DNA from: Escherichia phage vB_EcoM-ZQ1
Reading direction: 5' to 3' (one strand)
DNA: 64,000 nucleotides
Sequence record: MW650886.1
The position numbers and the translations under genes were made by a program. The notes beneath the pieces are model-generated. The model was given only the letters and a program-made list of their open reading frames with translations. It was not told the origin of the DNA and made no database searches. Every line of letters starts with the position of its first letter. Position 1 is the first letter of the stretch. Positions 6,101-43,932 of this stretch are shown here, piece after piece.

Positions 6101-6412
6101 AGGGGTCGCCATGAATTGTTTGGTCGCTTCGATCATGGAAGCGATAACGCGCATTGGGTTCTTGAAGCGAGCGATGGCGTCAGGATAGACGGAGCCGCGC
6201 TTCTGGCCGATGAAAACCTGACGAACGCTCTTGCCCAGCCCCTGAGGAGTATAGAACTGAATGCGGTATTCCTTATCATCTTCGTCGACGAAGGTAAAGA
6301 ACACATCGCCTGCGTTCTTCTTACCCATGGTCAGCTCATACGGAGCGGAGTTGAACGCTTCGTCTAACTGATCTCTTTCCTGCATGAACTGGAGGAAACT
6401 TAGCTTTGACAT
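3122..6412 (-). CDS. large hypothetical protein (1096 aa) with internal (DTSN)x3 repeat
   Basis: long uninterrupted ORF; no polymerase or ATPase motifs seen; CTAATTA late-like motif upstream. Confidence 0.6.
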   Translation of the reverse strand: MSKLSFLQFMQERDQLDEAFNSAPYELTMGKKNAGDVFFTFVDEDDKEYRIQFYTPQGLGKSVRQVFIGQKRGSVYPDAIARFKNPMRVIASMIEATKQFMATPLGKTIDGFAVNFSKKALDRGMTLIPKIIRQSGLKQKLNVMDLTYAPVPDRGYVWLVRKGKDPAQVFDGPKMQGITWDDPDKVGDVPVQNNTPDVGVGAGSSEIEVNREWYNSSDTGLELKSGRDPIRGNYVRLISGSKEVATFYGYDFDKYPDGTEVSWNMKRGFTNQDLVGASMTKQKKGMYDQYTFKKGAQIILVVDVDTSNDTSNDTSNGNGWKLTSNGDQPMLLWAGKERGRTNTANIAPHYNEPGVYVGAYMNEKPVRGQSADFIARQLKLPQVPINILNDFTMASTKFWKGSQNSSDRNNPANIIGSGTAVIDAKRLGAREVNVERFKNGVRMRSQNGDVDISISDPDFSNAASATDAATASVVVKNGRYEGAINSKRKIARTSNEQGTEWDIIGVNGETLVSIKLNKVSKSASDSTEGATSVDQLRDSGFIARVLGIIDTNVGLDTSILPGENIRRVGAGRYTTAGGLVIVVNFTNVLAGFVQYSVFSEIAEEENVAKGSARDVANAVIASIFEVAKTQYTGKWEISAVPTSAPYPIKAIRRSRGWGYVETANWTLTVSDAVLNRVKPGKTALLELIKEPPRGKHPLEIIPEKGDKTLMLKDRITGAIYGSIDLNAQGADLVNSGTLKIPSNAMVFGETVNGMSIRWDVNFPETGKYAGTSMITNVTYYYDKGKVAFTPIVSQKGRTLNNPKTYELPLNKDMVQSVIDEISSKMVYLSRNLQQLKSQSYNPNQVFLNDITITDKGEVIWNDYNLSDGKVTQIMLSMISAENKRLEKVANKPDINTTLPKKQAEVVEFINRMIDIDLTPYVRTPKKRDVVLFDSSELSINQLNNIERLGRETGKWSLEPNGGMGHALLLKSTSHNPKDDLAAYADSIRDNAPKGRDLDWQIYASRDGQTLNVDWDITFRRNTTEGAYREFKAQIDRANQYLQTLYRDAKSKGYNPTEPNLMTLDSAQQSDQWARDYGEGAYSEYEQSLGGNMQIKI
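5463..5498 (-). repeat. in-frame 12-bp tandem repeat x3
   Basis: cattgctggtgt repeated three times, encoding DTSN-DTSN-DTSN. Confidence 0.8.
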
Positions 6413-6487
6413 TTTATATCTCCTGATTGAATTAATGGCGGTTTCTTCTAATTAGCGAAACCAAAAGGGAGCGTCAGCCCCCTTATC

Positions 6488-6823
6488 TTATTTTTGAACT
6501 TGGGCTACAGACATCGCCCAGAGCGGGAGGGTGTGGGGGTCCAGGGCTTCCAGTAGATATTCGACGCGCTCTGACATGATACCTTCAGGGAAGTTTACTT
6601 CTTCTGGTTCGTTGTTGGCCGTCCAACCCAATGTCAGTCCTTCAGCGTGATGGATGATATAAACGAAGTCGTCTGGTTCGTAGTCCTTTTCCATCAGGGC
6701 GAAGAAATCTTCCATTTCTTCGTCGGAGAAGTAGTAGATGCGAGGTACAGAGCCGTCAGCAAAGTGCTCAGCACCCTGGAAGGCAAACATGTCATCGGCG
6801 GTGAAGTTCTTGAGTTGTGTCAT
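6488..6823 (-). CDS. hypothetical early protein (111 aa)
   Basis: ORF with conserved leader ...GGAACTATATC-ATG and upstream early promoter. Confidence 0.55.
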   Translation of the reverse strand: MTQLKNFTADDMFAFQGAEHFADGSVPRIYYFSDEEMEDFFALMEKDYEPDDFVYIIHHAEGLTLGWTANNEPEEVNFPEGIMSERVEYLLEALDPHTLPLWAMSVAQVQK

Positions 6824-6871
6824 GATATAGTTCCTGCTTTTCAAGTTGGTGTCGTACTGCTTATGGAATGA

Positions 6872-6900
6872 AGTATAGGAAAGGATATTGAAGAAGTAAA
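6872..6900 (-). promoter_or_regulatory. T4-type early promoter (-35 TTTACT, -10 TATACT)
   Basis: TTTACT - 16 bp - TATACT on minus strand; same cassette as at 39977 and 50705. Confidence 0.5.
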
Positions 6901-6914
6901 GGGGCGAAAGCCCC
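6901..6914 (-). terminator. stem-loop terminator
   Basis: ggggcgaaagcccc hairpin flanked by T-rich sequence. Confidence 0.45.
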
Positions 6915-6929
6915 TTTTATTGAATTATT

Positions 6930-7568
6930 TTACGGCGTCGGATTCACAACCGGAATGTGGGATCGAATACCTGCGATGATGTCCTTCAGCCGAGGATTCC
7001 ATCCACCCACCAAACGGGGGAGAGCGATAGCGCCAGGCTGGACCAAAATGATGTCGCTGCCTGTGATATTGTGCTGAGGGAACTGAGCAAGGTACTGCTC
7101 CATGGCGACACCCTCATCAATCAGAACAGGACCGACATCAGATGACGCGTAGGTTGCACCCAGACCGTCAACGCCCCATGCCAAGATACCCCAGTCAGGG
7201 ATGTTGGCTTCAGATGTGATGGTGAATCCAAACACGGTGTTCAGCGAAGTAAAGGAATAGACATCGTGGGTGATGTCATACACCAGATACCCCTTGGCCA
7301 GCATATCGGCAAAGATCGCGTCCGTATCGCCAACAGCCGGAGTCGGCACAGTAAACAACAGCTCGCCATCAGGAGGAGCAGGATACGTGCCGAGGGCATA
7401 GAGGCACCATGCATCAATGCACTTCTTAATGAACGCCTCTGGCGCGACATAATCAGCAAGGCGAACCGTACCTGAGTACTCTGATACGATAATGCCTTCC
7501 TTCGCACCCTGTAGAGCAATGAAGACCAAGATATGTTCATATCCGGCCTGAGATGGAGTGATGTTCAT
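6930..7568 (-). CDS. hypothetical protein (212 aa)
   Basis: ORF; internal ATG 7568 overlaps stop of upstream gene. Confidence 0.5.
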   Translation of the reverse strand: MNITPSQAGYEHILVFIALQGAKEGIIVSEYSGTVRLADYVAPEAFIKKCIDAWCLYALGTYPAPPDGELLFTVPTPAVGDTDAIFADMLAKGYLVYDITHDVYSFTSLNTVFGFTITSEANIPDWGILAWGVDGLGATYASSDVGPVLIDEGVAMEQYLAQFPQHNITGSDIILVQPGAIALPRLVGGWNPRLKDIIAGIRSHIPVVNPTP

Positions 7569-8182
7569 TATCTTGTCCTCTTCAGTTTCTCTATTGTGTG
7601 CTTGTTCATGGCGATCACCTGAGGATCTACCTCGGAGATGGTCCGGCCTTCGAAAGACACACATTTCTGAAGATATTTAGCTTTCTTCACGACGTCGGCA
7701 GCATAAGCGTTCGATGCAGGATTACGGGCGAAGCCAGCATTGTAAGAGGAGAGGGATTTGCGGATATTCTGATTGTGATAGGTCAGCCAGAACTGCATCT
7801 CATCGAGGGCGGCTTGCGCGGCATATTCTTGGTCGGTCAGCAACTTTATGGCGACATTGGCATAGCACTTGCGATTCTTACAACCTTCGCGATCACCAAC
7901 TGTCTTCACCTTGTTCTGAAAGGCTCCCATGTTGGCCGCCTTGAGACCGTATCGCATTGACACTACATCTTCACCAGCGCGGCTCTCTCGCCAAGATATG
8001 GCGGCCAGAGTGTAGCCAAGATCTTGTGTCTTGCCTACGTGATAGGCGGTTGCCATCGTATTAAGTTGTTGCTCGGAGAAATTATAAACACATTGACTTG
8101 TATTTTGGGAAGCGTGCACATTCCCGCTGGCAATGGTAAAGGTCACGGACAAGGCCATGGCCTTCAACGTTGTCATCGTCAT
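7568..8182 (-). CDS. secreted protein, possible lytic transglycosylase-like
   Basis: N-terminal signal-peptide-like segment; weak ES...GAFQ motif. Confidence 0.4.
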   Translation of the reverse strand: MTMTTLKAMALSVTFTIASGNVHASQNTSQCVYNFSEQQLNTMATAYHVGKTQDLGYTLAAISWRESRAGEDVVSMRYGLKAANMGAFQNKVKTVGDREGCKNRKCYANVAIKLLTDQEYAAQAALDEMQFWLTYHNQNIRKSLSSYNAGFARNPASNAYAADVVKKAKYLQKCVSFEGRTISEVDPQVIAMNKHTIEKLKRTR

Positions 8183-8278
8183 GATGGCGTTCCTTATGTT
8201 TGTCGACTTGCAGCTCGATTGAGCCTCCTGACAGGGGTTAAAAGATAAAGGGCACGTGATATTTAGTGCCCTTCAGCC

Positions 8279-8563
8279 TCATTCGTAGATGAGGTGGTAG
8301 GATTCCTCGATACACTCCAGCCAGCCATAGACGAACTGTAGAGGGTCATCCCATGCCGTCTTGGTCGCGACGGTAAAGTTGCCGTCCAGGATCTGCATAT
8401 CTTGGTACTTGTTGAAAGCGAGTACAGCATCAACCACAATCAGGCCGCCCTGCTCAAGATAACGATTCGGAGTGACGGCCACTTGGTAACGAGGATTCCT
8501 GTGATTCCATATCTCCACAGCAATGTCACAGGAATCCTGAATTTCATCTTTGGTTTCTGACAT
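8279..8563 (-). CDS. hypothetical protein (94 aa)
   Basis: ORF in same-strand gene run. Confidence 0.45.
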   Translation of the reverse strand: MSETKDEIQDSCDIAVEIWNHRNPRYQVAVTPNRYLEQGGLIVVDAVLAFNKYQDMQILDGNFTVATKTAWDDPLQFVYGWLECIEESYHLIYE

Positions 8564-8873
8564 ACGTTTGTCTCAGGTGTTCAGTAAAGGATTTACCCAG
8601 CTTGCGGAATAGTTTAATACGACCAATGACTTTGACGTAAACATCTCCGTGGCAGGGGCGTGGCTTACACCAGCACCCCAATACCTTCCCGTCAAGCTCA
8701 AGGAGTTCATCCTCGGTGATATCCCCTTCAATCAGGCGCACATACAGGTCTTCTTCAAACAGTTCGATACAGACGCCTCGTCCATGGTCTTTGACCTCAA
8801 ATGGGTTCCCCCATTTACCAGGCCGACCAATGTAGACGTCATATGGCTCCTTCTTGAAGTGGACGACTTTCAT
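8544..8873 (-). CDS. DUF4326-like conserved phage protein
   Basis: HFKKEPYDVYIGRP..WGNPF ... CWCKP.PCHGDV motif pattern. Confidence 0.4.
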   Translation of the reverse strand: MKVVHFKKEPYDVYIGRPGKWGNPFEVKDHGRGVCIELFEEDLYVRLIEGDITEDELLELDGKVLGCWCKPRPCHGDVYVKVIGRIKLFRKLGKSFTEHLRQTYVRNQR

Positions 8874-8874
8874 T

Positions 8875-9033
8875 TCAGGATTTGACCTGCAAGTAGATAA
8901 CAGAACCAGACAGAGAACCCGAGATACCCCAGTGCTTTCAGGTAGTTTTTCCTTTCGACTTCACGAGAAAATGCAATGATGTCAATGATGCATGCAAAGA
9001 CCAGGATTGCGAGTTTAATTTGTTCGTAGTTCA
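8875..9033 (-). CDS. small hydrophobic protein (52 aa), not in ORF track
   Basis: ATG at 9033, hydrophobic core, fills gap between flanking genes. Confidence 0.3.
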
Positions 9034-9036
9034 TGA

Positions 9037-11382
9037 TCAATCCTTCTTGATAACTTCAGTCAGGCCGTTTCGCAGGCCGTAGCGAATGTTGTGTTGGAAG
9101 TATTCCTGGAACTCCTGTTCGCGCTGGCTAATAACAAACAGGTTGTTCCCGCCGAACTTATGCTTCAACATCTCAACCGATTCCTGCACCCCGCGCTCGC
9201 TCATGTTCTCAAGGATCTCGTCCAGCACGAACAGGTTACATTGTACAGACGCCTTGAGGTTAGCCACATCGCGCAGAGCTAATGTCACAGCCAGGTTCAG
9301 ACGACTGCGCTGGCCAGTAGACAGGGAGAAGATACTCTGTCCTTTGCGGCCTGCTGCGCTCATGGTGATCTCAAAGGTATCGTCAACAACGATGTCCAGG
9401 AACATGTTGAGGGCTTCAAGATACTCGTTGATCTTGCTATTGAGGAATGGCAGATACAGGGCGATGATACGCGCCTTGGTCTGGTCATCTTTCAAGAAGA
9501 ACAGCAGGTGCTGTAAGTCCTGGAGTTCTTGGTCGGCATCCTCGCGGCGCTGGTATAGATCCTCCAGTTCACCTTCCAACGCAGCGATGGAGTTCTCCAG
9601 GTCGGTGGTAGGTGTTGGCTTTACAGCCAGTTTACGCTCCAGATCGGCAATAGACGCCACGAGAGGAGCACGACGGGCTTTCAGCTCGGCGATCTTATCA
9701 TCGACGGCTTTAATCCCGCTAACGGCATTCTCTCGCGTCTGTTGCAGCGACGCAGTGATGTCTTCAAAACGAACGTTCATTGCCTTACGGATGTCAAGGA
9801 TCTTCTGTTGGCATTCACGGTTCAGCGAATTACACTCAATCGTGGCGACATCATGAAAACCTTGAATATCACGGCGCAGCTGCTTGATGTTGTCAACGAT
9901 TTCGTCGGCCTGCTTGCGCATTGCATCAAGTTCAGCATCCAACACAGCAATGTCAGCAACCAGCTTGTCGTCCTGGGCTTTGTGGTCATCGATCAACACA
10001 GTGACTTCGGCGGTGACTTTATCCAGCTGGTCCAGCTTCGCCTGTAGATCCTGAATCCGAGGATTGTACTCGCTTTCAATGCGCGCCTTGGTATCGTCGG
10101 ACACCAGTTGGGTACATGTTGGGCAAGTCCCCATGTCGTGGAAGCGCTTGATGGCCGACTGATGCCCCTCCATTTCAGTCTGGAACTTGATACGGAAGTT
10201 CTCACCCTGCTGGCGGCGCTGAATAGCAGCGTTCAGGGTGTCCAGGTTTGTGTTGCGCTTGGTGAGCAGGGTGTTCTTGCGTTCGGCCACTGTAAAGGCG
10301 CGGTCACGCAAGACCTGAAGTTCATGCTCCGCAGTAGACACTTCGATGCGCTCATAATCATCGGCCTTTTCCTGAGCGGCATCCTTCACCGCCTGGATCT
10401 TGGCATCAAAGTCTTTCTTGACAGCCTCGATCTCTACCATGGATTCATCATGCAGGCGGCTTTCCACCGTCTTCATTTCCTGGGTGGCTTCAAACTCCAC
10501 AGCCGTGAGGCGGGTGCGCTCCTCATTCTGCGCGGCAATGTCAGCATCCAGGGAATTCAGGGCTTCCTGTTGCTGTACAAGGATATCGGCCGACTGCTGT
10601 TGGATCAGGGCGTTGGATTGCTCGATCTGCTGAAGCTGCGTCTTCTTGTTGGTGTGGTCAACAACCTTCAGTGCGCATTCGTTAGATATAGAGTCCAGAG
10701 TTGCATTTGTCCTTTTGATGGCGGCCTTGACATCTTCGTTCATCAGGCTGAAGAAGCCCAAGTCCCAGATAGTCTCCACCATGGCGCGGCGGTCGGCTGT
10801 GTACATCTCCGTGAACGGAATGAACTTCTCTTTACCCAACACCAGAGAGTTCTCAAACATCTTCTGGTCTACACCGATGAGGTTCACGATGTACTTGTTC
10901 ATGTCGGCTTTGGCTGCTTCGTTATCGATCTGCAACCACTTGCCGTCCACCATCTGGTAGACTTCAACAAAGTCAGGTTTAATGCCACGGCGAACCTTCC
11001 ATTCGCTACCACGGCAGGCAAACTCCACCTCACCCACACATTCCTTGCGGCTCTGTGAGTTAACCAGGCCTGCCTTCTTCTCCTTCTTGCTGTATGTGTC
11101 GTTGTACAGTACGAAAAACAGCAGCCATACCAGCATCGTGGATTTACCCGCGCCGTTGTCATCAGACGTGACAAGGGTGGCCGGGTTGCGCTGATAATCA
11201 ATCTCCATGAACTGATTGCCGATGGAGCGGAAGTTCTTGGCGCGGCCTTTGCGGAAGGTCAGTTTGTGTGTAACAACGTTACGCACTTCAAATGGGACTT
11301 CAACCTCGACCGGGGCGTCGGCTTCCTTCAAAAGATTACCAAATTTGGTCAAGATATCTGTGCTCTGAGTCATGTTATGCAT
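9037..11382 (-). CDS. 46: recombination endonuclease ATPase subunit, gp46 / SbcC-Rad50-like
   Basis: Walker A GAGKST at N-terminus, coiled-coil middle, LSTGQRSR signature and D-E Walker B at C-terminus. Confidence 0.8.
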   Translation of the reverse strand: MHNMTQSTDILTKFGNLLKEADAPVEVEVPFEVRNVVTHKLTFRKGRAKNFRSIGNQFMEIDYQRNPATLVTSDDNGAGKSTMLVWLLFFVLYNDTYSKKEKKAGLVNSQSRKECVGEVEFACRGSEWKVRRGIKPDFVEVYQMVDGKWLQIDNEAAKADMNKYIVNLIGVDQKMFENSLVLGKEKFIPFTEMYTADRRAMVETIWDLGFFSLMNEDVKAAIKRTNATLDSISNECALKVVDHTNKKTQLQQIEQSNALIQQQSADILVQQQEALNSLDADIAAQNEERTRLTAVEFEATQEMKTVESRLHDESMVEIEAVKKDFDAKIQAVKDAAQEKADDYERIEVSTAEHELQVLRDRAFTVAERKNTLLTKRNTNLDTLNAAIQRRQQGENFRIKFQTEMEGHQSAIKRFHDMGTCPTCTQLVSDDTKARIESEYNPRIQDLQAKLDQLDKVTAEVTVLIDDHKAQDDKLVADIAVLDAELDAMRKQADEIVDNIKQLRRDIQGFHDVATIECNSLNRECQQKILDIRKAMNVRFEDITASLQQTRENAVSGIKAVDDKIAELKARRAPLVASIADLERKLAVKPTPTTDLENSIAALEGELEDLYQRREDADQELQDLQHLLFFLKDDQTKARIIALYLPFLNSKINEYLEALNMFLDIVVDDTFEITMSAAGRKGQSIFSLSTGQRSRLNLAVTLALRDVANLKASVQCNLFVLDEILENMSERGVQESVEMLKHKFGGNNLFVISQREQEFQEYFQHNIRYGLRNGLTEVIKKD

Positions 11383-28292: not shown

Positions 28293-29513
28293 TTATTCAG
28301 GTTTCTTCAAACGGTCCAGCAAATTGACGGAACCACGTTTGAGCACGACTTCATCACAGCGCTTTTTGTATTCCCCACCGCCGTCATATCCAACCTTCCC
28401 GCGCGGTTTTTTACCTTGCTGTATGGCCTCTACACAACGAGTATATTTCGACAATTCACAAAAGTGGTTTTCTAATTGTTGAACATTCATACACTGATCC
28501 CAAGGCTCTTCCGCAGACCAAAATTCTTCCCTGTTATACCCAAGAGGGCCATAAACCGCGTCCTGATTGTCCCGCAACCAGAAGATGCATTCTTCATGCG
28601 TCATGCCATCTTTGTCCTGGAACATCAGGTCGATCCCTGCGCGACAGCCTGGTCCAGCAACCGTGAAGTGGTTCTCACTGAAAGGATATTCAGGAATGTA
28701 AGTGAAGTCAACCCATATCTGATAGGCCAGGAATGGGCCAAGCCCTTCGATGTCGTCATACATGCGCTGGTATACTTCCAAAGGAGTACCAAGGCGCAGC
28801 AGGTCATGGAAATAATTTGGATACTTGTTGACGAATGCCTTCAGGGAGCGGATGACACGCATTGGCATGTACGGTTCCCAACCTTCGATGGTGTAGAAGT
28901 CCGGCTCTGCTTCGGCTATCGCCTTGGCTTCTTTATAATCCATGTTCTGGGTTGAACCGTCTTTACAGATCAGATTCACCATCATCCCACCGAAGCGCTG
29001 CTCCTTGTGGTTGACAACCATCTCAGGGAAAGCCAGGCATTGCTTCAGGCCGCCCGTGTTGAAGGCATTGGTGAATACCTTACCACCGTCGGCCTCGAAC
29101 TTCTGAAGTCGTTCGCGGGTTGCATCGAGGTTGATCTCGGCGAATTCTTTGATCGTCATCGCGCCGCCGATAGCCTGGATTGGATCCCAGAGGTTGAACA
29201 TGCGGAACAACACGCAGTTGAACATCTTGTCGGCCATACCCAGAGCATCATTCTTGGCGATGTTGTTGATCAGGTTGAGAGACTGCCTGTCGTGCTCTCT
29301 CCGGACGTTACAGAATTTAACCTGGCGTAGTATGGGATTATCAGTCCAAGGAGCAGGAAGGCGCTGGACGTCCTTCTTGACGTGGATCTGATAACGATCG
29401 CGCATCCATTCGTAAGACAGGCGGGTATGGGTCGGGCTGAGAACCGGTTTGGCCGACTTTATCTTTTCTTCACGGACACCGCAGTACGGGACGTCCAGGG
29501 CTTTATCTTTCAT
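28293..29513 (-). CDS. hypothetical protein (406 aa)
   Basis: long ORF; family not recognised by eye. Confidence 0.55.
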   Translation of the reverse strand: MKDKALDVPYCGVREEKIKSAKPVLSPTHTRLSYEWMRDRYQIHVKKDVQRLPAPWTDNPILRQVKFCNVRREHDRQSLNLINNIAKNDALGMADKMFNCVLFRMFNLWDPIQAIGGAMTIKEFAEINLDATRERLQKFEADGGKVFTNAFNTGGLKQCLAFPEMVVNHKEQRFGGMMVNLICKDGSTQNMDYKEAKAIAEAEPDFYTIEGWEPYMPMRVIRSLKAFVNKYPNYFHDLLRLGTPLEVYQRMYDDIEGLGPFLAYQIWVDFTYIPEYPFSENHFTVAGPGCRAGIDLMFQDKDGMTHEECIFWLRDNQDAVYGPLGYNREEFWSAEEPWDQCMNVQQLENHFCELSKYTRCVEAIQQGKKPRGKVGYDGGGEYKKRCDEVVLKRGSVNLLDRLKKPE

Positions 29514-29581
29514 GGTATCCTCTTAGAATACGAAAACAGAGGCCATTATAGCCTCTGTTGTTTAGTGAATAACCGTATATC

Positions 29582-30454
29582 TTAATCGATACGGGTCAGT
29601 TGGGTGATAGATGATTGCACTGGGCTGGCCACATAGATACGGACGTTGGCTTTCCATTCACCCCAGATCAACGGTAGAGTTGGGAAGTTGTCTTCATTGA
29701 AAACAAACACGGGAATGTAGCTCTCGACTGTTTCGCCAGAGAACGCCTGGAAGCCCATCTTGGTGTATCCCATGATCTCGTCAATAAAATCGAACGGCGC
29801 GTAGGCAACACCAGCATGTTCGTTGCATCCGAGTCGACCTGGGGTAGCCGTGCCTGTCAGAATGATTTCGGTGATCTGGCGCTTAGGCTCGGTGGTCAAC
29901 ATATCAGAGAAGTCAGGCTCTTTGAAGGTTGCCATGTTCTTCAGGAACTTGCCAGCCGGGTATTCTTTACCGTCGACGGTGATGGTGTCTACTACTTTGA
30001 TGCACGCCTGAGGGAATTCCCCTTCGATGCGCAGACTTTCGCGTGGGAAGCCTTTGTTGTAGTAGTAATCCAGTGCTGGCACAACTTCACCTTCATTACG
30101 GATGAACTTGCTCATGTTAGAGGCATACACGCGCTGTAGGCATTCGTCACCGTCGAAACCAGCAATATGAGCCACGCCGTCGTTGACTGTTGTGATGTCA
30201 CCCTGGGCATCCATGATCTGGCGCATAATGTCTTTGATGTCGACAACAACGGGTTCTTTCAGGACTCGCGGAGATGCAGTGAACTCAATTTTCACCTCGT
30301 GGTCGAAATACGCCGCTTCCAGCAGTTCACGGGTTTCTTCCAGCACCAGTTTCGCCTGATTGCGGATCTTACCAAAGTCGGGCGATGTGACGTCGCCCTT
30401 TGCATTACCGAAAGCCAGATTCAGATTCACGTTCTTGGAAAATGTAGTTGTCAT
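29582..30454 (-). CDS. hypothetical protein (290 aa)
   Basis: ORF; weak EExxELxxA MazG-like motif only. Confidence 0.5.
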   Translation of the reverse strand: MTTTFSKNVNLNLAFGNAKGDVTSPDFGKIRNQAKLVLEETRELLEAAYFDHEVKIEFTASPRVLKEPVVVDIKDIMRQIMDAQGDITTVNDGVAHIAGFDGDECLQRVYASNMSKFIRNEGEVVPALDYYYNKGFPRESLRIEGEFPQACIKVVDTITVDGKEYPAGKFLKNMATFKEPDFSDMLTTEPKRQITEIILTGTATPGRLGCNEHAGVAYAPFDFIDEIMGYTKMGFQAFSGETVESYIPVFVFNEDNFPTLPLIWGEWKANVRIYVASPVQSSITQLTRID

Positions 30455-33130: not shown

Positions 33131-33239
33131 TTGTATGTATCCTCAAAATATAGTGGGGGTTCAAGTCATGTTTGACGCAATCTAGTATCGCTGTGTTTTG
33201 CTTATAGAACAAGTGGCAAATTGCGCTACGCGTTATTAA

Positions 33240-33257
33240 TAAATGCCTTCGGCATTT
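33240..33257. other. perfect hairpin aaatgcc-ttcg-ggcattt in noncoding region
   Basis: 7-bp stem, tetraloop. Confidence 0.5.
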
Positions 33258-33262
33258 ATGGA

Positions 33263-33309
33263 CTTTATTAAAGATAATAACCTTTATTAAAGATAATAAT
33301 CTTTATTAA
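33263..33309. repeat. three iteron-like direct repeats (CTTTATTAAAGATAATAA period 18 bp)
   Basis: two full copies plus partial third in the largest noncoding gap. Confidence 0.7.
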
Positions 33310-33342
33310 TCCTATTCGCTTCGCTCATAAAACAAATACTCG

Positions 33343-33372
33343 TTGTTCGCTAACGCTCACAACTCGTATAAT
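33343..33372 (+). promoter_or_regulatory. sigma70-like promoter (TTGTTC - 18 - TATAAT)
   Basis: plus-strand -35/-10 pair upstream of plus-strand gene 33492..33863. Confidence 0.35.
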
Positions 33373-33491
33373 ACCACGCCATTGTTCAACAAGAAAGCAG
33401 TTTTTATTCAACAGCAAAATTAATTTATTTGGTCTAAACATGCACGCGAAATAATATGTATGTCATGTTAACCAACATACGAGAGTAATAT

Positions 33492-33863
33492 ATGAAACAG
33501 TTCGTAGGATTATACGCAGTTGGGTGTAGTAAACCAGACGCCAAGCTCACCACAGATCAATTTACCACAGGCACCCCAGTTTATCTGACACAGCTGGCGT
33601 CAGACAAGAACTTACCATCGGAGCCGCGATTTGTCCCTCTGGGGTTGATGACAGGTCTGAAAGTTGGTCTGTATGTCGGTGTGGTGACGTTTGAAAATGG
33701 CGTCGAAGCGAAAGTTCTGCCATTCAAATTGGGCAGCGAAGAAATGCTGAAGGATACGATCAGTGAACACCTGAACTCACAATGTCTGGCTTCTCTGGAC
33801 AAATTGTTCGGTGTAGTAACTGATGAAGGCGAGGCCACCCCCGCCTATGTGAATCAAGATTAA
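33492..33863 (+). CDS. hypothetical protein (123 aa)
   Basis: plus-strand ORF with GAGAG RBS. Confidence 0.45.
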   Translation: MKQFVGLYAVGCSKPDAKLTTDQFTTGTPVYLTQLASDKNLPSEPRFVPLGLMTGLKVGLYVGVVTFENGVEAKVLPFKLGSEEMLKDTISEHLNSQCLASLDKLFGVVTDEGEATPAYVNQD

Positions 33864-35368
33864 TCGTGATTACCCAGCGCCACCTTCATGAACTCCACAG
33901 GGTGGCGCTCTGCCAGGTAAAACTTGTAACGCTCGTGAGAGTGCCTAAGAGCGTGGTTCGTGCTGGCGTTGTACGATGCATCATCCACTAAGTCCCATAT
34001 CCACGCGACGTCCTTAGAGGAGTGCTGACGCATCAGACGACCCAATGTCTGTATGACGCGGATATATGACTTGCTCGGGTGTGCCAGTACAAGGTGGTGT
34101 AGCTTCTTGATCGACACTCCCTGCTGCATTGTCCCGTATGAAGCCAACAACGTGATATCTTCTCCATCCTCCATCGCTTTCTGTATGCGGCGGCGGTCTT
34201 CGATCTTCACTTCCCCGTTGATGACAAACACGTTGGGCTTGACTGCGCTCAGCATATCGTACACAACCATCATGTGGGCGTCAATACGCTCGAACATGAT
34301 GGCCACGTTCCCTTTCAGATTCAGTGCCATCTTGGCGATCAGTTCGTTGCGGGACTGGTGTGTGATAAGGTATTCTATTTCCTTGGAATAATCCCCGTCC
34401 AGACCAACAGCATCCGCCGGAGTGTGCTTCAGCTGAATCATCTTCACTTTGATGTCAGTGGCGTATCCGAGATTGATAAGATCGCGAGCCGTGATGATCT
34501 TATGGTACGCCCCGAAGTGAGCCACCACCTGAAGCCCGGCAACTTTGGTATTCGCCAGCGTACCTGTAACCCCCAAGCGCTGGTCGGCATAGATGCAGTT
34601 GTTTAGGATGTAAGACAGTTTCTCAGACTTGGAGGTGTGCACTTCATCCACCACGATATCACCGAACTGGTGGAACCATTCCTTCGGTTGATCTTGAATG
34701 CCTTGCCATGTACTGATGACGATTGGTTTGCTGATCTCCTTTGTCGCGCCCTCAAAAATCAGCTGGGTGTTAACAACGGGCTTCCAATCACTGCCATGCG
34801 CATACTCTTCGAAGTTGTCGTACAGCTGAGTGACTAAGTGGATTGACGGCACCACGATAAGCGTCTTCAGAGGACTTTCGAGAGCTTCTCTGCGCCGCCT
34901 GTAGTACCGCGCCATGACATACAGAATAAAGGACTTACCGGCACTCGTAGCCAGTTCACAGACGCATCTGGTTTGACGCATAGCCTTGGCGATGGTGTCG
35001 TACTGGTAGTCACGAGTCTCGGCATCGATATATTCGTGATTTTCGGTGCGGATCTTTGGATGCAGACTGTCGATGAAGTCACGGATTTCTTCATCTGGGA
35101 TGTCCTGAATGTACTTCAGCGCCGGATCCAGTTCAATGGTGTATCCGTTGTTCTTACAGAACTTAAATACCTCAAACAGCAGACCGATATCGATTAGACC
35201 AGATGACTTGGTAAATAGGCGGACAACCCCGTCCCATTTAGAGAAGGGGTTGGGAACGAAGTTCGGGTCTTCGAATTTGAAGTAGTCATTAAGTTCTTCC
35301 CTGATAGAAAGATCTGCGATGCAACGCATGCGGACTTCGTTAACCTTAACAATCTGAATGTCTGCCAT
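33860..35368 (-). CDS. uvsW: SF2 helicase, UvsW-like
   Basis: Walker A TSAGKS, DEVH box; ~500 aa; neighbour of UvsY-like gene as in T4. Confidence 0.6.
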   Translation of the reverse strand: MADIQIVKVNEVRMRCIADLSIREELNDYFKFEDPNFVPNPFSKWDGVVRLFTKSSGLIDIGLLFEVFKFCKNNGYTIELDPALKYIQDIPDEEIRDFIDSLHPKIRTENHEYIDAETRDYQYDTIAKAMRQTRCVCELATSAGKSFILYVMARYYRRRREALESPLKTLIVVPSIHLVTQLYDNFEEYAHGSDWKPVVNTQLIFEGATKEISKPIVISTWQGIQDQPKEWFHQFGDIVVDEVHTSKSEKLSYILNNCIYADQRLGVTGTLANTKVAGLQVVAHFGAYHKIITARDLINLGYATDIKVKMIQLKHTPADAVGLDGDYSKEIEYLITHQSRNELIAKMALNLKGNVAIMFERIDAHMMVVYDMLSAVKPNVFVINGEVKIEDRRRIQKAMEDGEDITLLASYGTMQQGVSIKKLHHLVLAHPSKSYIRVIQTLGRLMRQHSSKDVAWIWDLVDDASYNASTNHALRHSHERYKFYLAERHPVEFMKVALGNHD

Positions 35369-35393
35369 ACAAAATCTCCCAAGGATTATGGGG

Positions 35394-35400
35394 TATTTAG
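35394..35400 (-). promoter_or_regulatory. late-promoter-like motif CTAAATA
   Basis: CACTAAATACC ~25 bp upstream of ATG 35368. Confidence 0.4.
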
Positions 35401-36143
35401 TGATCCGGCCAGACTCCGTTTTGTTCTTTATCCATGCGATGATACAGACGAACACGCTCAAACATCTTTGTCAGAATGTCATCACGGTTGAACTCAATGA
35501 CGGTTGGTAGAGGGGAAGACTCGTTGGCAATCACGTTGATGAGGCGGGTGATCTTGACGCCGAACATCTGCTGGAACATGACCGAATATAAGCACAGCTG
35601 GATACTGTAATCCTCGATCATGCCCCGCGTCTTCATGGTGTTCGATGTCTTGAAGTCGATGACAGCAGGTTTACCCTCATAAACCCCGATAAGGTCTACA
35701 CGACCTGCAAGACCAAGCACCTCGCTATATAATGGGATCTCCTGAGCATAGATCTTTGTCATCTTGTTCAGGTAAGGGAACAGCTGCTTGAACATGAACA
35801 TGTATTCGCCAGCCGCTTCCAACACTTCTTTCATTGGGCGGTTCTTTAGATACAGTTCACACGCAAGGTGCAGCTTCTCCCCTCGGTCAGCACAGCGCAT
35901 GGTCTCAAGGTCAGCGGCTTCTGCGCCCAGCTTCTTCCTCCAAGACTCAAGCCATTCATGATCTCCAGTGCGTCCCAGCATAGTCGTGACGGATGTCAGT
36001 TTAACACCAGACGGTGAAACATAATGACGACCATTCTCCGTCGTAACACATTCCAGTTCCTTATGAGGAAGTTCGTATTGCTGGAATGTGTAATGGCGGT
36101 TTTCGAAGTCATTCAGCTTGCGTAGATCCTGGAGAGATGCCAT
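35397..36143 (-). CDS. PD-(D/E)xK family nuclease (RecB/Cas4-like fold)
   Basis: GRVDLIGV ... VIDFKTS motif pattern. Confidence 0.45.
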   Translation of the reverse strand: MASLQDLRKLNDFENRHYTFQQYELPHKELECVTTENGRHYVSPSGVKLTSVTTMLGRTGDHEWLESWRKKLGAEAADLETMRCADRGEKLHLACELYLKNRPMKEVLEAAGEYMFMFKQLFPYLNKMTKIYAQEIPLYSEVLGLAGRVDLIGVYEGKPAVIDFKTSNTMKTRGMIEDYSIQLCLYSVMFQQMFGVKITRLINVIANESSPLPTVIEFNRDDILTKMFERVRLYHRMDKEQNGVWPDH

Positions 36144-36158
36144 TATGTGTGATCCTCG

Positions 36159-36611
36159 TTATACACCATCAATATATTTTCTCCACTCAATAGCATTTTT
36201 CACTTCGTATCCCAGTTTGTTCAGGCGATCCAAACAAGTCTCTATGAACTTGACTTTTGCTTTTTGTTCTTGTAACAGAACAGACAACTCCACATAGTCA
36301 TCGTCTGCTTTGACCCATGTATCTAGGTCAGACTTCAGGGGGCGAACCTTCAGGGGGCGCTCTGCGTAGATGTTAGGGGGTAACTCCCCTGCATAGTAGC
36401 GGCGCAGATAGAGATCGATCTGGCGGAAGCGCCCGTTGAGAAATTCAAGATAACGTCCCTCGCGCAGATAATGCCGCTGTACAGCCATCCAAGAGCGCCC
36501 GATTTTCAGTGAGATCTGGTCAAGGTTCATGTCTTCTGGGTCCACTGTGATCAGCGGCTCCAGTTCGTTCATGATGTCCTCGGTAGCCATTGTCTGTAGT
36601 TGTTCTTTCAT
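36159..36611 (-). CDS. possible UvsY-like recombination mediator
   Basis: size 150 aa, LYLRRYYAGE resembles UvsY RLDYYSG region; adjacency to UvsW-like gene. Confidence 0.35.
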   Translation of the reverse strand: MKEQLQTMATEDIMNELEPLITVDPEDMNLDQISLKIGRSWMAVQRHYLREGRYLEFLNGRFRQIDLYLRRYYAGELPPNIYAERPLKVRPLKSDLDTWVKADDDYVELSVLLQEQKAKVKFIETCLDRLNKLGYEVKNAIEWRKYIDGV

Positions 36612-36653
36612 AAAATATCCCAGCTTGTCAATGTCATAGAATTATACCGCATT

Positions 36654-37367
36654 TCATGGATTAGAATCAATCGCCTTCCCACCAGATAGTGGAACCAGCT
36701 GTTGGAACTTGAAGGTCACTGTTGTCACCAGCTGAGGTACAGCCGCGTCTACGTCCACCAGTACGTTGTCCAAAGCAGTCGGGCGGGCTTCCTCCAGCAC
36801 GAGAGTGAGGCCAATCGGTCGGTTGAGGTTATCCAGCAATTCAATGGTAATGTCCTTGCTGACAGGCAAATCCTTGCCGACGTTGCTGGTAATCCATTGG
36901 TGGATCTGTAACCATGATTTCCAGTCCTCGTCTATAACGAAAGTAAATACGACGGGATCATAGGTTAAACGCTCTGAAGGTATAGAAACCAACACGTCAC
37001 CAGGAGACGGACCATCGATGCCTTCGGAGTACACTCCTGGTATACTGAAGTCGTGGATGTTACGGGTTAGGAGTACAAGGTCTCCGATAGTCAGACGCCA
37101 CTTATCGGACGCCGCGAAATTAGGGTTTTCGTTCTTGAATTGTACGTTGGACATAATAGCACCTTTGCTGTGGAGATATTTTGTGACCCTGATGCGCGGG
37201 ATCAGTAGATTGTTGTTGGCATGCTCGATGCTCTTGTTTACGAGCTGTCGAATCTTTGTCACGCCAATAATTTCTGTTTCCGAATTCTGGAACCCAGAAG
37301 TGCGCACTGTACCTGTGACGTTGTCGGCCAGCGTTCCCACTTGTAACAAGGGTATGCTGGACATCAT
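36654..37367 (-). CDS. hypothetical protein (238 aa)
   Basis: ORF; start at internal ATG-ATG 37367 chosen to avoid overlap with plus-strand gene. Confidence 0.4.
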   Translation of the reverse strand: MMSSIPLLQVGTLADNVTGTVRTSGFQNSETEIIGVTKIRQLVNKSIEHANNNLLIPRIRVTKYLHSKGAIMSNVQFKNENPNFAASDKWRLTIGDLVLLTRNIHDFSIPGVYSEGIDGPSPGDVLVSIPSERLTYDPVVFTFVIDEDWKSWLQIHQWITSNVGKDLPVSKDITIELLDNLNRPIGLTLVLEEARPTALDNVLVDVDAAVPQLVTTVTFKFQQLVPLSGGKAIDSNP

Positions 37368-37425
37368 CGTGCAAGAGTTCCAGCCCTTCCAGAAGCTCGT
37401 ACCTTTAGGTTGCTTTGATGAGAAC

Positions 37426-37833
37426 ATGAGCACCCTCAAGCCATACTGGAAGACCACAATTCCTCTCCTGCGGCATGGCGATGAAGGGAAGATTCCATAC
37501 ATTTCAGCAAGTATTTATTACTCTCAGAACAACAGCATCATTATCACTTTTAATCCATCATTCTACGCCAAGCTGAAGCAACAAATGGTTGGACGATTGG
37601 GTGCAACATCGGATATAATCGTGACGTTCAAGATCATGAATGACACAGATAAACCAGTACGAATCGCAACTCAGAGTGTGTTCGTCAACAATGACGCGGT
37701 TGGAAATGGGATGAGCATCTTTGAAGTTAACCCAGGGGGAACGATCTTGATCAGACTGAGTAATGTGGGTGTGAACTCCCTGCTGTTGGATGGCATCGAA
37801 CCAGTGGGAGTTCTTCCGGCGCGGGAGCACTGA
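37426..37833 (+). CDS. hypothetical protein (135 aa)
   Basis: protein-like C-terminal half of plus ORF 37018..37833; convergent with next gene. Confidence 0.35.
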   Translation: MSTLKPYWKTTIPLLRHGDEGKIPYISASIYYSQNNSIIITFNPSFYAKLKQQMVGRLGATSDIIVTFKIMNDTDKPVRIATQSVFVNNDAVGNGMSIFEVNPGGTILIRLSNVGVNSLLLDGIEPVGVLPAREH

Positions 37834-42600: not shown

Positions 42601-43932
42601 TTAGAACAGGCCTTTGATCAGCCCTTTACGGAAATATACGTTGGTGTCCTTGGCGATACCATCCGCAGTCACATAGACCTGTGGATCCTGGTTCGCTGGG
42701 ATCTGAACGAATGGGTTAGCACAAATCCCGTAGCGGGTCTTGAATGCCATACGTGGTGCGAAGGTGGTTTCACCCTGGGTGCGGTACATTTCCAGCGGTA
42801 CATACGGTGCGAAGAAGATACCAGCGTCCAGTGCGGTTGCGCCTTTGTATGCTAGGGTGATGTATTCTGCTACTGCATACGGGTCGATGTAGACACGCAT
42901 ACCGTTAGACAGCACACCAGCGAAGGTCTGACCAGTCGGATCAATCGCCAGCTTGGTGTTTTCCTGCAGCGCCGGAGCATAATCCAGCATGCCGGACATC
43001 GCCAGAGCGGATGCTACGTTCGGGGAGCACAGAACACGGTTGCCTTTACCACGACGGGTGTCAACACCGATGCCGTTCGCTTCAACTTCCAGCATGAAAG
43101 TCATGTACTTCCATTTTTCCAGCGCCCAACGACCGGAGATGTCAGTGGAGATGTCTACGATACCGTTGGTGCCGAATTTTTTGAAGCGTACTGCGCTGAA
43201 GTTCATGGTGCGGATAAACTCACGGTTCATCTCTGCCTGAATTTCAGTTACCATCACGTCGGACAGGATGCTGTCAACGTCTTCGCCGTGGATCGCCATC
43301 ATGTCCTGGCGCAGTTCGTGGCTGTAGTCAGCGTACAGGCCGCGAGACTTCGCAGTCACGGTTGCTTTCTGAACGGTGATACCAACACGTGCCCATGGGT
43401 TGGTGGTGGTGCCCAGCAGTTCAGCGTCGGAGGTTGACATGCCTTTACCGATGGTGGTGGTAGCAGCGCCGGAACCTTCGATTTCAGTCTGGGAGAAGCC
43501 AGATGGGTCGCCAGCCTGTGCAGTATCGTCACCGGAGTAACCGGAGTTGGCTTCGTTCATGAACAGCTCAGCGCGGGACTGGGCAGTGTTGGAGCCGTCT
43601 GCAACGCCCTGGCGAGCACGCAGTGCGAAGATCTGACCGTCAGGACCAGACAGCGGCTGAACGCCGAAGAAGTCCATCGCGATGTTGACCGGAGCCAGAC
43701 GTTTGGCCATGTCGATCAGGACTGGCTGCCATTTGCCCACAGAGGCGTTCACGGAGCCAGGAGCGTCGGATTCGCCCAGGTTTTTGGCGTTCCACTCAGC
43801 CTGGTTTTGCAGCAGACGGACGGCAACGTTTTCGGCAGAAAGCGGCTGGATGCTTTCAGATTCTTTCTGAAGAACTGGCAGCCACTGCTCGCGCATTTGT
43901 TCAGTAACAAGTTTCTTAGCCATGATGGTCAT
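42601..43932 (-). CDS. 23: major capsid protein, gp23-like
   Basis: 443-aa ORF at the end of portal-protease-scaffold-capsid T4-order module. Confidence 0.7.
   Translation of the reverse strand: MTIMAKKLVTEQMREQWLPVLQKESESIQPLSAENVAVRLLQNQAEWNAKNLGESDAPGSVNASVGKWQPVLIDMAKRLAPVNIAMDFFGVQPLSGPDGQIFALRARQGVADGSNTAQSRAELFMNEANSGYSGDDTAQAGDPSGFSQTEIEGSGAATTTIGKGMSTSDAELLGTTTNPWARVGITVQKATVTAKSRGLYADYSHELRQDMMAIHGEDVDSILSDVMVTEIQAEMNREFIRTMNFSAVRFKKFGTNGIVDISTDISGRWALEKWKYMTFMLEVEANGIGVDTRRGKGNRVLCSPNVASALAMSGMLDYAPALQENTKLAIDPTGQTFAGVLSNGMRVYIDPYAVAEYITLAYKGATALDAGIFFAPYVPLEMYRTQGETTFAPRMAFKTRYGICANPFVQIPANQDPQVYVTADGIAKDTNVYFRKGLIKGLF

Follow-up and report, generated by a model that had tools for sequence, protein, structure and literature searches.

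The locus studied here raises the question of why a nuclease gene should stand between homologues of the T4 genes uvsW and uvsY, and of what the three products might do together. UvsY is a recombination mediator whose heptamer puts the UvsX recombinase onto gp32-coated ssDNA, and UvsW is an SF2 helicase that unwinds R-loops and branched DNA and regresses forks. A sequence-only reading of the 64-kb stretch of DNA analyzed here (the window) had placed a UvsW-like helicase gene, a PD-(D/E)xK nuclease gene and a possible UvsY-like gene in a row at 33860-36611, and had taken the nuclease for an insertion that suggested a modified recombination-repair module. The row is real, as the ORF listing shows this span to be filled exactly by three co-oriented minus-strand ORFs (Table 1). 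The window belongs to Agtrevirus (Ackermannviridae) and shares 98.7% identity with Escherichia phage LHE287. We consider, with a probability of roughly 0.6, that the trio, a cluster conserved in Ackermannviridae, belongs to the T4-type apparatus of homologous recombination, recombination-dependent replication and repair, to which the nuclease would add a further single-strand exonuclease.

The genes are closely packed: 15 nt separate uvsY from the nuclease gene and 28 nt the nuclease gene from uvsW, and each spacer contains a Shine-Dalgarno sequence (GAGGA and GGGAG, respectively). A terminator scan found no terminator between the trio genes able to act on the minus strand. The 533-aa ORF of the listing begins at a TTG upstream of the uvsW ATG at 35368, from which the product has 502 aa; the length of 503 aa given earlier is corrected accordingly.

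Table 1. Genes and promoter-like motifs of the uvsY-nuclease-uvsW locus (window coordinates).
Feature	Position	Strand	Description
uvsY	36159-36611	-	150 aa; Pfam and PHROG profile matches, UvsY fold in AF2 model
MGME1-like PD-(D/E)xK nuclease gene	35397-36143	-	248 aa; PF12705, phrog_298, MGME1 profile and Foldseek matches
uvsW	33860-35368	-	502 aa; UvsW_N, ResIII, Helicase_C; T4 UvsW homology
Candidate sigma-70-type promoter of uvsY and nuclease gene	36641-36670	-	TTGATT, 18 nt, TATAAT; across gp3 stop codon
CTAAATACCCC motif, candidate late promoter	35390-35400	-	overlaps nuclease TAA stop codon, precedes uvsW

Both outer proteins match the profiles of their families, the comparison on which the earlier assignment had been staked. 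The 150-aa protein matches PF11056 (UvsY) over profile positions 13-127 of 128 (E 1.2e-11; 45.6 bits against a cut-off of 22.8) and phrog_231, 'UvsY-like recombination mediator', with an E value of 1.4e-43. Pairwise similarity to T4 UvsY is confined to the C-terminal half (24% identity, E 7e-5, in an alignment of only 78 residues), and a PDB-wide sequence search recovered T4 UvsY only at E 0.97. The YY(A/S)G position aligns with that of T4 and, at the place of the basic ssDNA-binding motif, is preceded by RR, versus K-A-R in T4. In the AF2 model of a fusion described below, the UvsY part has a pLDDT mostly above 90 and resembles the T4 UvsY crystal structures 4zwq/r/s/t, with target TM scores mostly of 0.79-0.85 and rmsd mostly of 2.2-3.6 A. 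At the level of profile and fold, the protein that had been called possibly UvsY-like thus holds as UvsY, a predicted UvsX loader.

The helicase assignment was likewise borne out. UvsW_N (PF21241, 32.2 bits against a cut-off of 25.3), ResIII and Helicase_C domains were detected by Pfam searches, and phrog_16 matched with an E value of 2e-103. The protein is 34% identical to T4 UvsW over residues 12-488 (blastp E 5e-86), and the T4 structure 2oca was matched over residues 12-481 (E 8.6e-76). SF2 motifs I, II and VI are intact, reading TSAGKS, DEVH and QTLGRLMR compared with TSAGKS, DECH and QTIGRVLR in T4. Profile and fold comparisons therefore support the 502-aa protein as UvsW, a predicted branched-DNA and R-loop helicase. 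It stops where T4 residue ~500 aligns and so is without the ~85-95-residue C-terminal extension of T4 UvsW (about 500-587). Nor do the proteins of Ag3, Kuttervirus and Taipeivirus carry this extension; those of the Vibrio and Aeromonas phages end in short basic tails. Judged from these alignments, the extension is a peculiarity of T4 and not a family-defining feature.

The middle protein is a PD-(D/E)xK nuclease, as had been claimed: it matches PF12705 (31.4 bits against a cut-off of 22) and phrog_298, 'exonuclease' (E 6.7e-86). Its best match by both sequence profile and structure is human MGME1 (Ddk1/C20orf72, mitochondrial genome maintenance exonuclease 1), with about 20% identity. When searched against PDB sequences, the family profile matched MGME1 with an E value of 4.5e-20 across positions 33-224 of its 225, and the next match had an E value of only 0.29. 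The AF2 model (pLDDT 94.9) gave the same result in a Foldseek search of the PDB, where the best nine matches were MGME1 chains (E 1.8e-12 to 5.1e-11, top rmsd 1.9 A), followed by RecE at 2e-5.

An alignment of 45 homologues showed W68, H92, E135, D150, D163, K165, Q182 and Y186 of the nuclease to be invariant. D150, D163 and K165 align with D238, D251 and K253 of MGME1, which are catalytic (numbering of PMC3597694), and H92 and W68 correspond to H180 and W152 of the MGME1 helical arch (PMC6237815). The catalytic His, Asp, Asp-x-Lys and Q...Y are thus kept together with the arch tryptophan. Outside the region matched by MGME1, the phage nucleases have an additional N-terminal beta-hairpin, in which R39 and Y41 are invariant. 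MGME1 prefers ssDNA as substrate and cuts from either end (PMC6237815); by analogy, the phage protein is predicted to be a metal-dependent exonuclease that works from free ends, on ssDNA termini and flaps. Sequence and model together argue specifically for the MGME1-like subfamily of PDDEXK_1 rather than for Cas4. MGME1 had already been grouped with exonucleases of Caudovirales infecting cyanobacteria and proteobacteria (Szczesny et al. 2013, PMC3597694). Our literature search found no paper or experiment on the function of this nuclease in any phage and no match for 'MGME1-like', and the Ackermannviridae papers do no more than list the genes. CRISPR-Cas9 counter-selection has been made to work for phage S117 (PMC11721090).

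The arrangement recurs in relatives, as the proposed synteny check revealed: the order gp3, uvsY, nuclease, uvsW is present in 13 of the 14 Ackermannviridae-type loci examined. Since the order of the trio is maintained in phages whose nucleases are 45-85% identical, it is not due to chance. Shigella phage Ag3, Escherichia phages LHE287, AV101 and RPN242, Salmonella phage vB_CECAV_050 and Kuttervirus phages have the trio in the same arrangement and on the same strand, with hardly any difference from the window; within Agtrevirus the nucleotide identity is 94-99%. In Ralstonia phage RSP15, uvsY and the nuclease gene stay together, uvsW is not adjacent, and a DNA polymerase gene follows the nuclease gene. 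In six loci (Ag3, Limestonevirus, Vibrio 1.244.A and 207E48.1, Aeromonas and RSP15) no gap separates the uvsY stop from the nuclease start, the two abutting or overlapping, and such junctions persist at 35-46% nuclease identity; in Ag3 (phiSboM-AG3 gp142-144) the overlap is 1 nt, compared with the 15-nt gap in the window. The tightest conserved link is that of uvsY to the nuclease gene and not that of uvsW to uvsY.

The cluster is not new. Dozens of GenBank records annotate its products as UvsW or DNA helicase, exonuclease or nuclease, and UvsY, and the three proteins are consecutive in a table of conserved Vi01-like proteins (PMC10892097). It was therefore already known as an ordinary Ackermannviridae cluster, annotated before this analysis, and the idea of a modified recombination-repair module stands only in that a role of this kind is reasonable. 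What our analysis adds is the conserved TATAAT upstream of uvsY and the presence of CTAAATACCCC at uvsW.

In a consensus scan, the site upstream of uvsY obtained the joint best score (10 of 12), in a region where the number of sigma-70-like sites was not above chance. The 3' end of its TATAAT hexamer lies 29 nt ahead of the uvsY ATG. An alignment showed this hexamer to be invariant across Agtrevirus, Limestonevirus, Kuttervirus and Taipeivirus, with varying spacing to the -35 element. We infer that it is a candidate promoter of uvsY and the nuclease gene. The other motif, CTAAATACCCC, is the known signature regulatory motif of the family and is listed at the corresponding position in phage EspM4VN. 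It occurs as two exact 11-mers in the window, one of them at the nuclease/uvsW junction, where it is kept across genera, and it ends 21 nt ahead of the uvsW ATG (25 nt when counted from the 7-nt core). The core, CTAAATA, was found 11 times in the window, where 3.7 +/- 2.1 occurrences were expected (0 of 100 shuffles), and every copy is on the minus strand; eight sites lie 23-42 nt ahead of the ATG of ORFs of at least 150 aa.

The genes preceded by the core include those for tail sheath, tail tube, head scaffold and head closure. Since it shares this core with the sheath, tube and scaffold genes, uvsW is probably served by a late promoter of its own, like its T4 counterpart. The late promoter of the ViI family was stated in a 2011 paper as not yet identified, and the occurrence of CTAAATACCCC ahead of both uvsW and classical late genes supports this motif as a candidate for it. 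Within the window, ATAAATA, which is related to the T4 late promoter, was not enriched, and the other motif of the family, TTCAAT-N14-TATAAT, was absent. The T4 late promoter TATAAATA was also considered as the control of uvsW and rejected; it occurs only twice in the window, in neither case near the trio. In T4, a late promoter drives uvsW, and middle promoters give rise to the oriF/uvsY transcripts (PMC3016281). The timing in the window would mirror this, with uvsY as a middle and uvsW as a late gene, pointing to a late UvsW expression conserved between T4 and these phages.

In the mechanism we prefer, uvsY and the nuclease gene would be transcribed together from the sigma-70-like promoter (36670-36641) as a functionally coupled pair, and uvsW would be reached both by read-through from the uvsY promoter and from its own late-type promoter. 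The nuclease may thread ssDNA under its helical arch as MGME1 does, removing 5' (or 3') ssDNA tails and flaps. Its preferred role would be to trim the 5' strand peeled by a helicase, UvsW or a Dda-like one, at broken ends or regressed forks. Such trimming would leave 3' tails, onto which UvsY would load UvsX. End processing by the trio would thus operate alongside gp46/47. Having uvsY as its conserved partner points to a nuclease that may prepare ssDNA for recombinase loading. The genome of the relative vB_CECAV_050 encodes elsewhere UvsX, gp32, gp59, gp41/61, gp46/47, RNase H, ligase and a RuvC-like resolvase; gp46/47 of this phage could do all end processing, which counts against such a model.

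The nuclease could instead be a replication-maturation enzyme that handles flaps, primers and 5' ends for the phage DNA polymerase, its place between uvsY and uvsW reflecting shared timing only. MGME1 is described as an ancillary 5' exonuclease of Pol gamma (bioRxiv 2024.01.15.575787). Among the loci examined outside Ackermannviridae, including those of cyanophages and jumbo phages, the nuclease gene is not beside uvsY: in Kyanoviridae the order is PhoH, nuclease, gp33, gp59, gp32, a metagenomic contig has it between DnaB-type helicase and PolB genes, and in another setting it is near ribonucleotide reductase genes. These replication settings are as compatible with a general function in replication as with one specific to recombination. 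The polymerase gene of RSP15 and the clamp and clamp-loader genes that profile searches located just downstream of the trio in the window also favor maturation. However, an RNase H/FEN-type enzyme and a DexA-like exonuclease are already encoded in vB_CECAV_050, and a uvsY-nuclease junction kept at 35-46% identity speaks for a linkage beyond mere co-timing. We regard this explanation as unlikely, although not negligible.

A stronger form of the recombination reading, in which UvsY, the nuclease and UvsW would constitute a self-contained presynaptic pathway parallel to gp46/47 that unwinds ends, removes the 5' strand and loads UvsX, seems doubtful to us. It would have uvsY and the nuclease coupled in expression and possibly physically, and would turn these phages into a tractable bacterial system for the study of MGME1. 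An AlphaFold monomer model of a UvsY-(GGGGS)6-nuclease fusion, built on a shallow alignment (10 paired and 20 nuclease-only rows), was confident in both parts and had a pTM of 0.58; this is about the share of the larger domain and therefore gives no evidence of docking, nor, with so weak a design, any proof against it. In a more remote variant, the uvsY promoter could also be an R-loop origin like T4 oriF, where the nuclease and UvsW would turn over the displaced strand, as MGME1 does with mitochondrial 7S DNA.

That the nuclease is a Cas4-like or defense enzyme, serving host DNA degradation, spacer processing or counter-defense and unrelated to recombination, is very improbable. It does give weak matches to TIGR00372 (E 9e-9), to PADLOC Cas4 (2.4e-9) and DruK (1e-7), and to Cas4 structures in Foldseek (around 1e-4), but the TIGR00372 match reaches 35.4 bits against a cut-off of 65 and covers only residues 133-238, the catalytic core, and MGME1 matches better by many orders of magnitude. 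The PADLOC matches to Cas4, DruK and PbeA are at the superfamily level only, and a defense system was rejected. Neighbors of the nuclease gene were always replication or recombination genes in the loci examined. The RecB/Cas4-like fold proposed earlier is correct for the superfamily, as the nuclease domains of Cas4 and RecB/AddB (PDDEXK_1) have the fold and the D...(D/E)xK...QxxxY core in common with the phage protein. It fails for Cas4 itself: the phage nuclease stands alone at 248 aa and scores under the family cut-off, and in the 45-sequence alignment no cysteine column is invariant or nearly so, which leaves it without the four conserved cysteines that hold the Fe-S cluster of Cas4.

The sequence-only reading had started from the adjacency of uvsW and uvsY in T4. 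In the 57 kb of T4 sequence analyzed the two are indeed close together, but uvsW is on the plus and uvsY on the minus strand, convergent and not one unit, with the small ORFs uvsY.-1 and uvsY.-2 between them, whereas in the window they are co-oriented and flank the nuclease gene; the two arrangements are therefore not one insertion apart. Among the 60 rows listed of the 996 matching records there was no T4-like phage, and only 61 of the 996 have names beginning with 'Escherichia'; these counts, with general knowledge of T4 nucleases, indirectly suggest that T4-like coliphages are without the nuclease. Although the neighboring T4 genes and this distribution would suit an insertion into an ancestral T4-like pair, we find that origin scarcely credible: the trio predates the split of all Ackermannviridae genera sampled, uvsY-nuclease is its tightest link and is kept in RSP15 without adjacent uvsW, members of the nuclease family are common in other phages of the T4 superfamily, and no co-oriented, adjacent uvsY-uvsW pair without the nuclease was present among the sampled loci.

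The discovery value of the locus is small, as genes and order are public and a 2013 paper had already tied MGME1 to phage exonucleases (PMC3597694). Still, what Ackermannviridae records call 'exonuclease' or 'hypothetical protein' at the position between uvsY and uvsW can now be annotated specifically as MGME1-like, not Cas4. If the proposed role is true, it would address 3'-tail formation in T4-type phages, and MGME1, an enzyme of human mitochondrial disease, would gain a simple model.

Compared with T4, the window has homologous UvsW and UvsY proteins, a uvsY gene just downstream of a tail or baseplate gene, a promoter for uvsY (a candidate one here) and a late-type promoter motif at uvsW; it differs, besides gene arrangement, in the length of UvsW (587 aa in T4). 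Compared with human mitochondria, the partners of the nuclease would be a T4-type replisome and UvsX/UvsY in place of Pol gamma and Twinkle. In bacteria, the presynaptic activities come from RecQ, a 3'-5' SF2 helicase, from RecJ, an ssDNA exonuclease, and from RecFOR, a recombinase mediator, a logic that the trio may resemble. The likeness to UvsW, nuclease and UvsY is a functional analogy only, as RecJ is not homologous to the MGME1-like nuclease, nor RecFOR to UvsY.

Three genes, all in one orientation on the minus strand, occupy 33860-36611 and encode UvsY, a PD-(D/E)xK nuclease and the helicase UvsW (see table). The sequence-only reading had named all three gene products correctly, although its helicase of 503 aa was off by one, the ATG at 35368 giving 502 aa; the ORF listing gives 533 aa from a TTG further upstream. 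The genes are separated by 15 nt (uvsY-nuclease) and 28 nt (nuclease-uvsW), and one Shine-Dalgarno sequence each precedes the nuclease and uvsW (GAGGA and GGGAG). Upstream of the trio lies gp3 (tail completion), and downstream a small convergent ORF is followed by sliding clamp and clamp-loader genes. Nucleotide identity of the segment is 98.7% with Escherichia phage LHE287, 98.2-98.5% with AV101, vB_CECAV_050, A221 and RPN242, and 93.8% with Shigella phage Ag3, all of the genus Agtrevirus, family Ackermannviridae. Agtrevirus records label the trio UvsW or DNA helicase, exonuclease or nuclease, and UvsY, and DNA helicase, exonuclease, UvsY-like recombination mediator and tail completion protein stand one after another in the list of Vi01-like conserved proteins given in a 2024 paper (PMC10892097). 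The cluster is thus previously known and annotated.

Features in and around the uvsY-nuclease-uvsW segment (window positions)
Feature	Position	Strand	Remark
uvsY	36159-36611	-	150 aa
PD-(D/E)xK nuclease	35397-36143	-	248 aa
uvsW	33860-35368	-	502 aa
phrog_4255 ORF	33492-33863	+	123 aa
gp3 ORF, long version	36654-37502	-
ORF opposite gp3	37018-37833	+	DUF7424 protein in relatives
sigma-70-like site	36670-36641	-	TTGATT, 18 nt, TATAAT; -10 ends 29 nt before uvsY ATG
11-mer CTAAATACCCC	35400-35390	-	overlaps nuclease stop; ends 21 nt before uvsW ATG
CTAAATA sites	63835-63829, 57352-57346, 57312-57306, 53078-53072, 48441-48435, 44900-44894, 38597-38591, 35400-35394, 30972-30966, 8266-8260, 7680-7674	-
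intergenic region	33131-33491		360 nt, between clamp gene and small plus-strand ORF
tandem 19-nt units	33263-33300		two copies, AT-rich (TTATTATCTTTAATAAAG)
hairpin	33239-33259		9 bp, ATAAATGCC-TTC-GGCATTTAT

Profile searches placed both UvsW and UvsY in their families. UvsW carries UvsW_N, ResIII and Helicase_C domains, matches the sequence of the T4 UvsW crystal structure (2oca) at E 8.6e-76, shares 34% identity with full-length T4 UvsW over residues 12-488 and aligns with it in helicase motifs I (TSAGKS), II (DEVH) and VI (QTLGRLMR). T4 UvsW has 587 aa, of which the final 85-95 are missing from the window, Ag3, Kuttervirus and Taipeivirus proteins; those of the Vibrio and Aeromonas phages end in short basic tails. 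UvsY scores 45.6 bits with its Pfam profile, above the threshold of 22.8, and its match to phrog_231 has E 1.4e-43. Its similarity to T4 UvsY itself is weak (24% over 78 residues, pairwise E 7e-5; E 0.97 in a PDB-wide search), yet its AlphaFold-predicted fold superposes on chains of the T4 UvsY crystal structures (TM mostly 0.79-0.85).

The nuclease is of the MGME1 type, a narrower assignment than the 'RecB/Cas4-like' proposed earlier, which holds for the wider fold. The best solved relative of the single sequence was human MGME1 (E 1.6e-3), and a profile built from 45 homologues reached MGME1 at E 4.5e-20 over nearly its full length, the runner-up standing at E 0.29. The nine best PDB matches of the AlphaFold model (pLDDT 94.9) were all MGME1 chains (top E 1.8e-12, rmsd 1.9 A), with RecE, Cas4, Exo5, AdnAB/AddAB and Dna2 far behind. 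Residues invariant in the 45 homologues include H92, D150, D163, K165, Q182 and Y186, and the invariant catalytic set aligns with MGME1 H180, D238, D251 and K253 (numbering of PMC3597694); W68 is aligned with W152 in the helical arch of MGME1, underneath which ssDNA binds (PMC6237815). A Cas4 identity was rejected because the Cas4 model scored 35 bits against a cut-off of 65 and no cysteine is conserved. Several metagenomic homologues are labelled 'genome maintenance exonuclease 1' by JGI, and Szczesny et al. (2013) grouped MGME1 with exonucleases of Caudovirales whose hosts are cyanobacteria and proteobacteria (PMC3597694), so the link is not new; experimental work on a phage MGME1-like enzyme did not turn up in the literature.

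The order gp3, uvsY, nuclease, uvsW was found in 13 loci: the window, Ag3, RPN242 and vB_CECAV_050 (Agtrevirus), Ds16CZ (Limestonevirus), Se-J (Kuttervirus), UPM2146 (Taipeivirus), Erwinia phage Bue1, Vibrio phages 1.244.A and 207E48.1, Aeromonas phage TSW001 and two metagenomic contigs. The uvsY stop directly adjoins the nuclease start, or overlaps it by 1-4 nt, in six loci, and in Ralstonia phage RSP15 the abutting pair is followed by a DNA polymerase gene, not uvsW; uvsY and the nuclease therefore form the most tightly conserved unit. The earlier suggestion that the nuclease was inserted into a T4-type pair is not supported, and the evolutionary framing is only partly right. In T4, uvsW (plus strand) and uvsY (minus strand) are convergent, with uvsY.-1 and uvsY.-2 between them and oriF at the 5' end of uvsY; 'adjacent' is thus only loosely true, and the window layout is not that of T4 plus one gene.

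Two ORFs separated by an inserted gene make up uvsW in Dickeya phage Ds16CZ (3776-6370), a metagenomic contig (L021, 4257-6679) and Shigella phage ChubbyThor; the inserted gene gives a faint SegE-type GIY-YIG match in L021 and is annotated "putative endonuclease" in ChubbyThor, which suggests a homing endonuclease or intron. The window uvsW is uninterrupted. The start of gp3 is annotated variously, so that the gene has 501 nt in Ag3 and vB_CECAV_050 but 774 nt in RPN242; the long version overlaps the plus-strand ORF, and its PHROG match starts only from residue 75. The convergent ORF, kept in Agtrevirus, Kuttervirus and Taipeivirus, matches phrog_4255 (E 1e-48) and overlaps the uvsW stop codon by 4 nt. 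No obvious terminator separates it from uvsW, and the two transcripts may therefore run into each other.

Upstream of uvsY, the TATAAT of the sigma-70-like site is invariant in four genera, with varying -35 spacing; since such sites are no more frequent in the region than by chance, we regard it as a putative promoter. The window holds 11 copies of CTAAATA, the core of the 11-mer before uvsW, all of them on the minus strand and roughly threefold the expected 3.7 +/- 2.1 (0/100 shuffles reached 11). Eight of the 11 sites lie 23-42 nt upstream of the ATG of a substantial ORF, and the genes that follow include tail sheath, tail tube, head scaffold, head closure, regA, a DUF7217 gene and uvsW; at gp62/regA and nuclease/uvsW the core encloses the TAA stop of the upstream gene. 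At the latter junction the motif is kept across genera, with degenerate forms in the Vibrio, Aeromonas and Erwinia phages. CTAAATAcCcc has been described as a signature motif of these phages, and its EspM4VN site at 101772-101782 (PMC7283392) is, by segment-alignment coordinates, exactly this junction. A 2011 paper described the ViI family's late promoter as not yet identified (PMC3184105); from position and conservation, the motif looks like the late promoter of Ackermannviridae. Elsewhere, the tandem units, absent from the rest of the window, and the hairpin beside them may act as a control element for divergent promoters. Three points are useful refinements: the assignment of the nuclease to the MGME1 type, the linkage of its gene to uvsY, and the late-type motif that precedes uvsW.

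A close relative encodes UvsX, gp32, gp59, gp41, gp61, gp46/47, RNase H and ligase, together with a Dda-like helicase, a DexA-like exonuclease and, by annotation, a RuvC-like resolvase, which indicates a phage with a full T4-type recombination-dependent replication system to which the MGME1-like enzyme is extra. In this relative, Salmonella phage vB_CECAV_050, the RuvC-like Holliday junction resolvase (42858-43448) and a 397-aa 'RecT-like ssDNA annealing protein' (28545-29738) are annotated; in T4, endonuclease VII resolves Holliday junctions.

The main rival to a recombination role is that the nuclease is a replication-maturation enzyme working with polymerase, and its neighbourhoods outside Ackermannviridae favour this. 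Close to it lie DnaB-type helicase and PolB genes or, in jumbo phages, ribonucleotide reductase genes; in a Rhizobium phage it stands alone, and in Kyanoviridae and marine contigs (Synechococcus phage S-RS29, 3207-6839; a marine T4-like contig, 3646-10220) PhoH precedes it and gp33-gp59-gp32 follow it in a conserved run. Some cyanomyovirus and marine records call it 'exonuclease A', a name probably carried over by mistake from T4 DexA, which is unrelated. A crude AlphaFold fusion of UvsY and the nuclease gave no sign of a complex (pTM 0.58). MGME1 prefers ssDNA, requires free ends and degrades from either end (PMC3597694, PMC6237815), and from this likeness we propose that the phage nuclease would trim ssDNA tails or flaps. 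In the recombination role that we prefer, it would remove the 5' strand displaced by UvsW or another helicase at breaks or regressed forks, leaving 3' tails for UvsY-mediated UvsX loading. Such a sequence of helicase, nuclease and mediator would follow the same logic as RecQ, RecJ and RecFOR.
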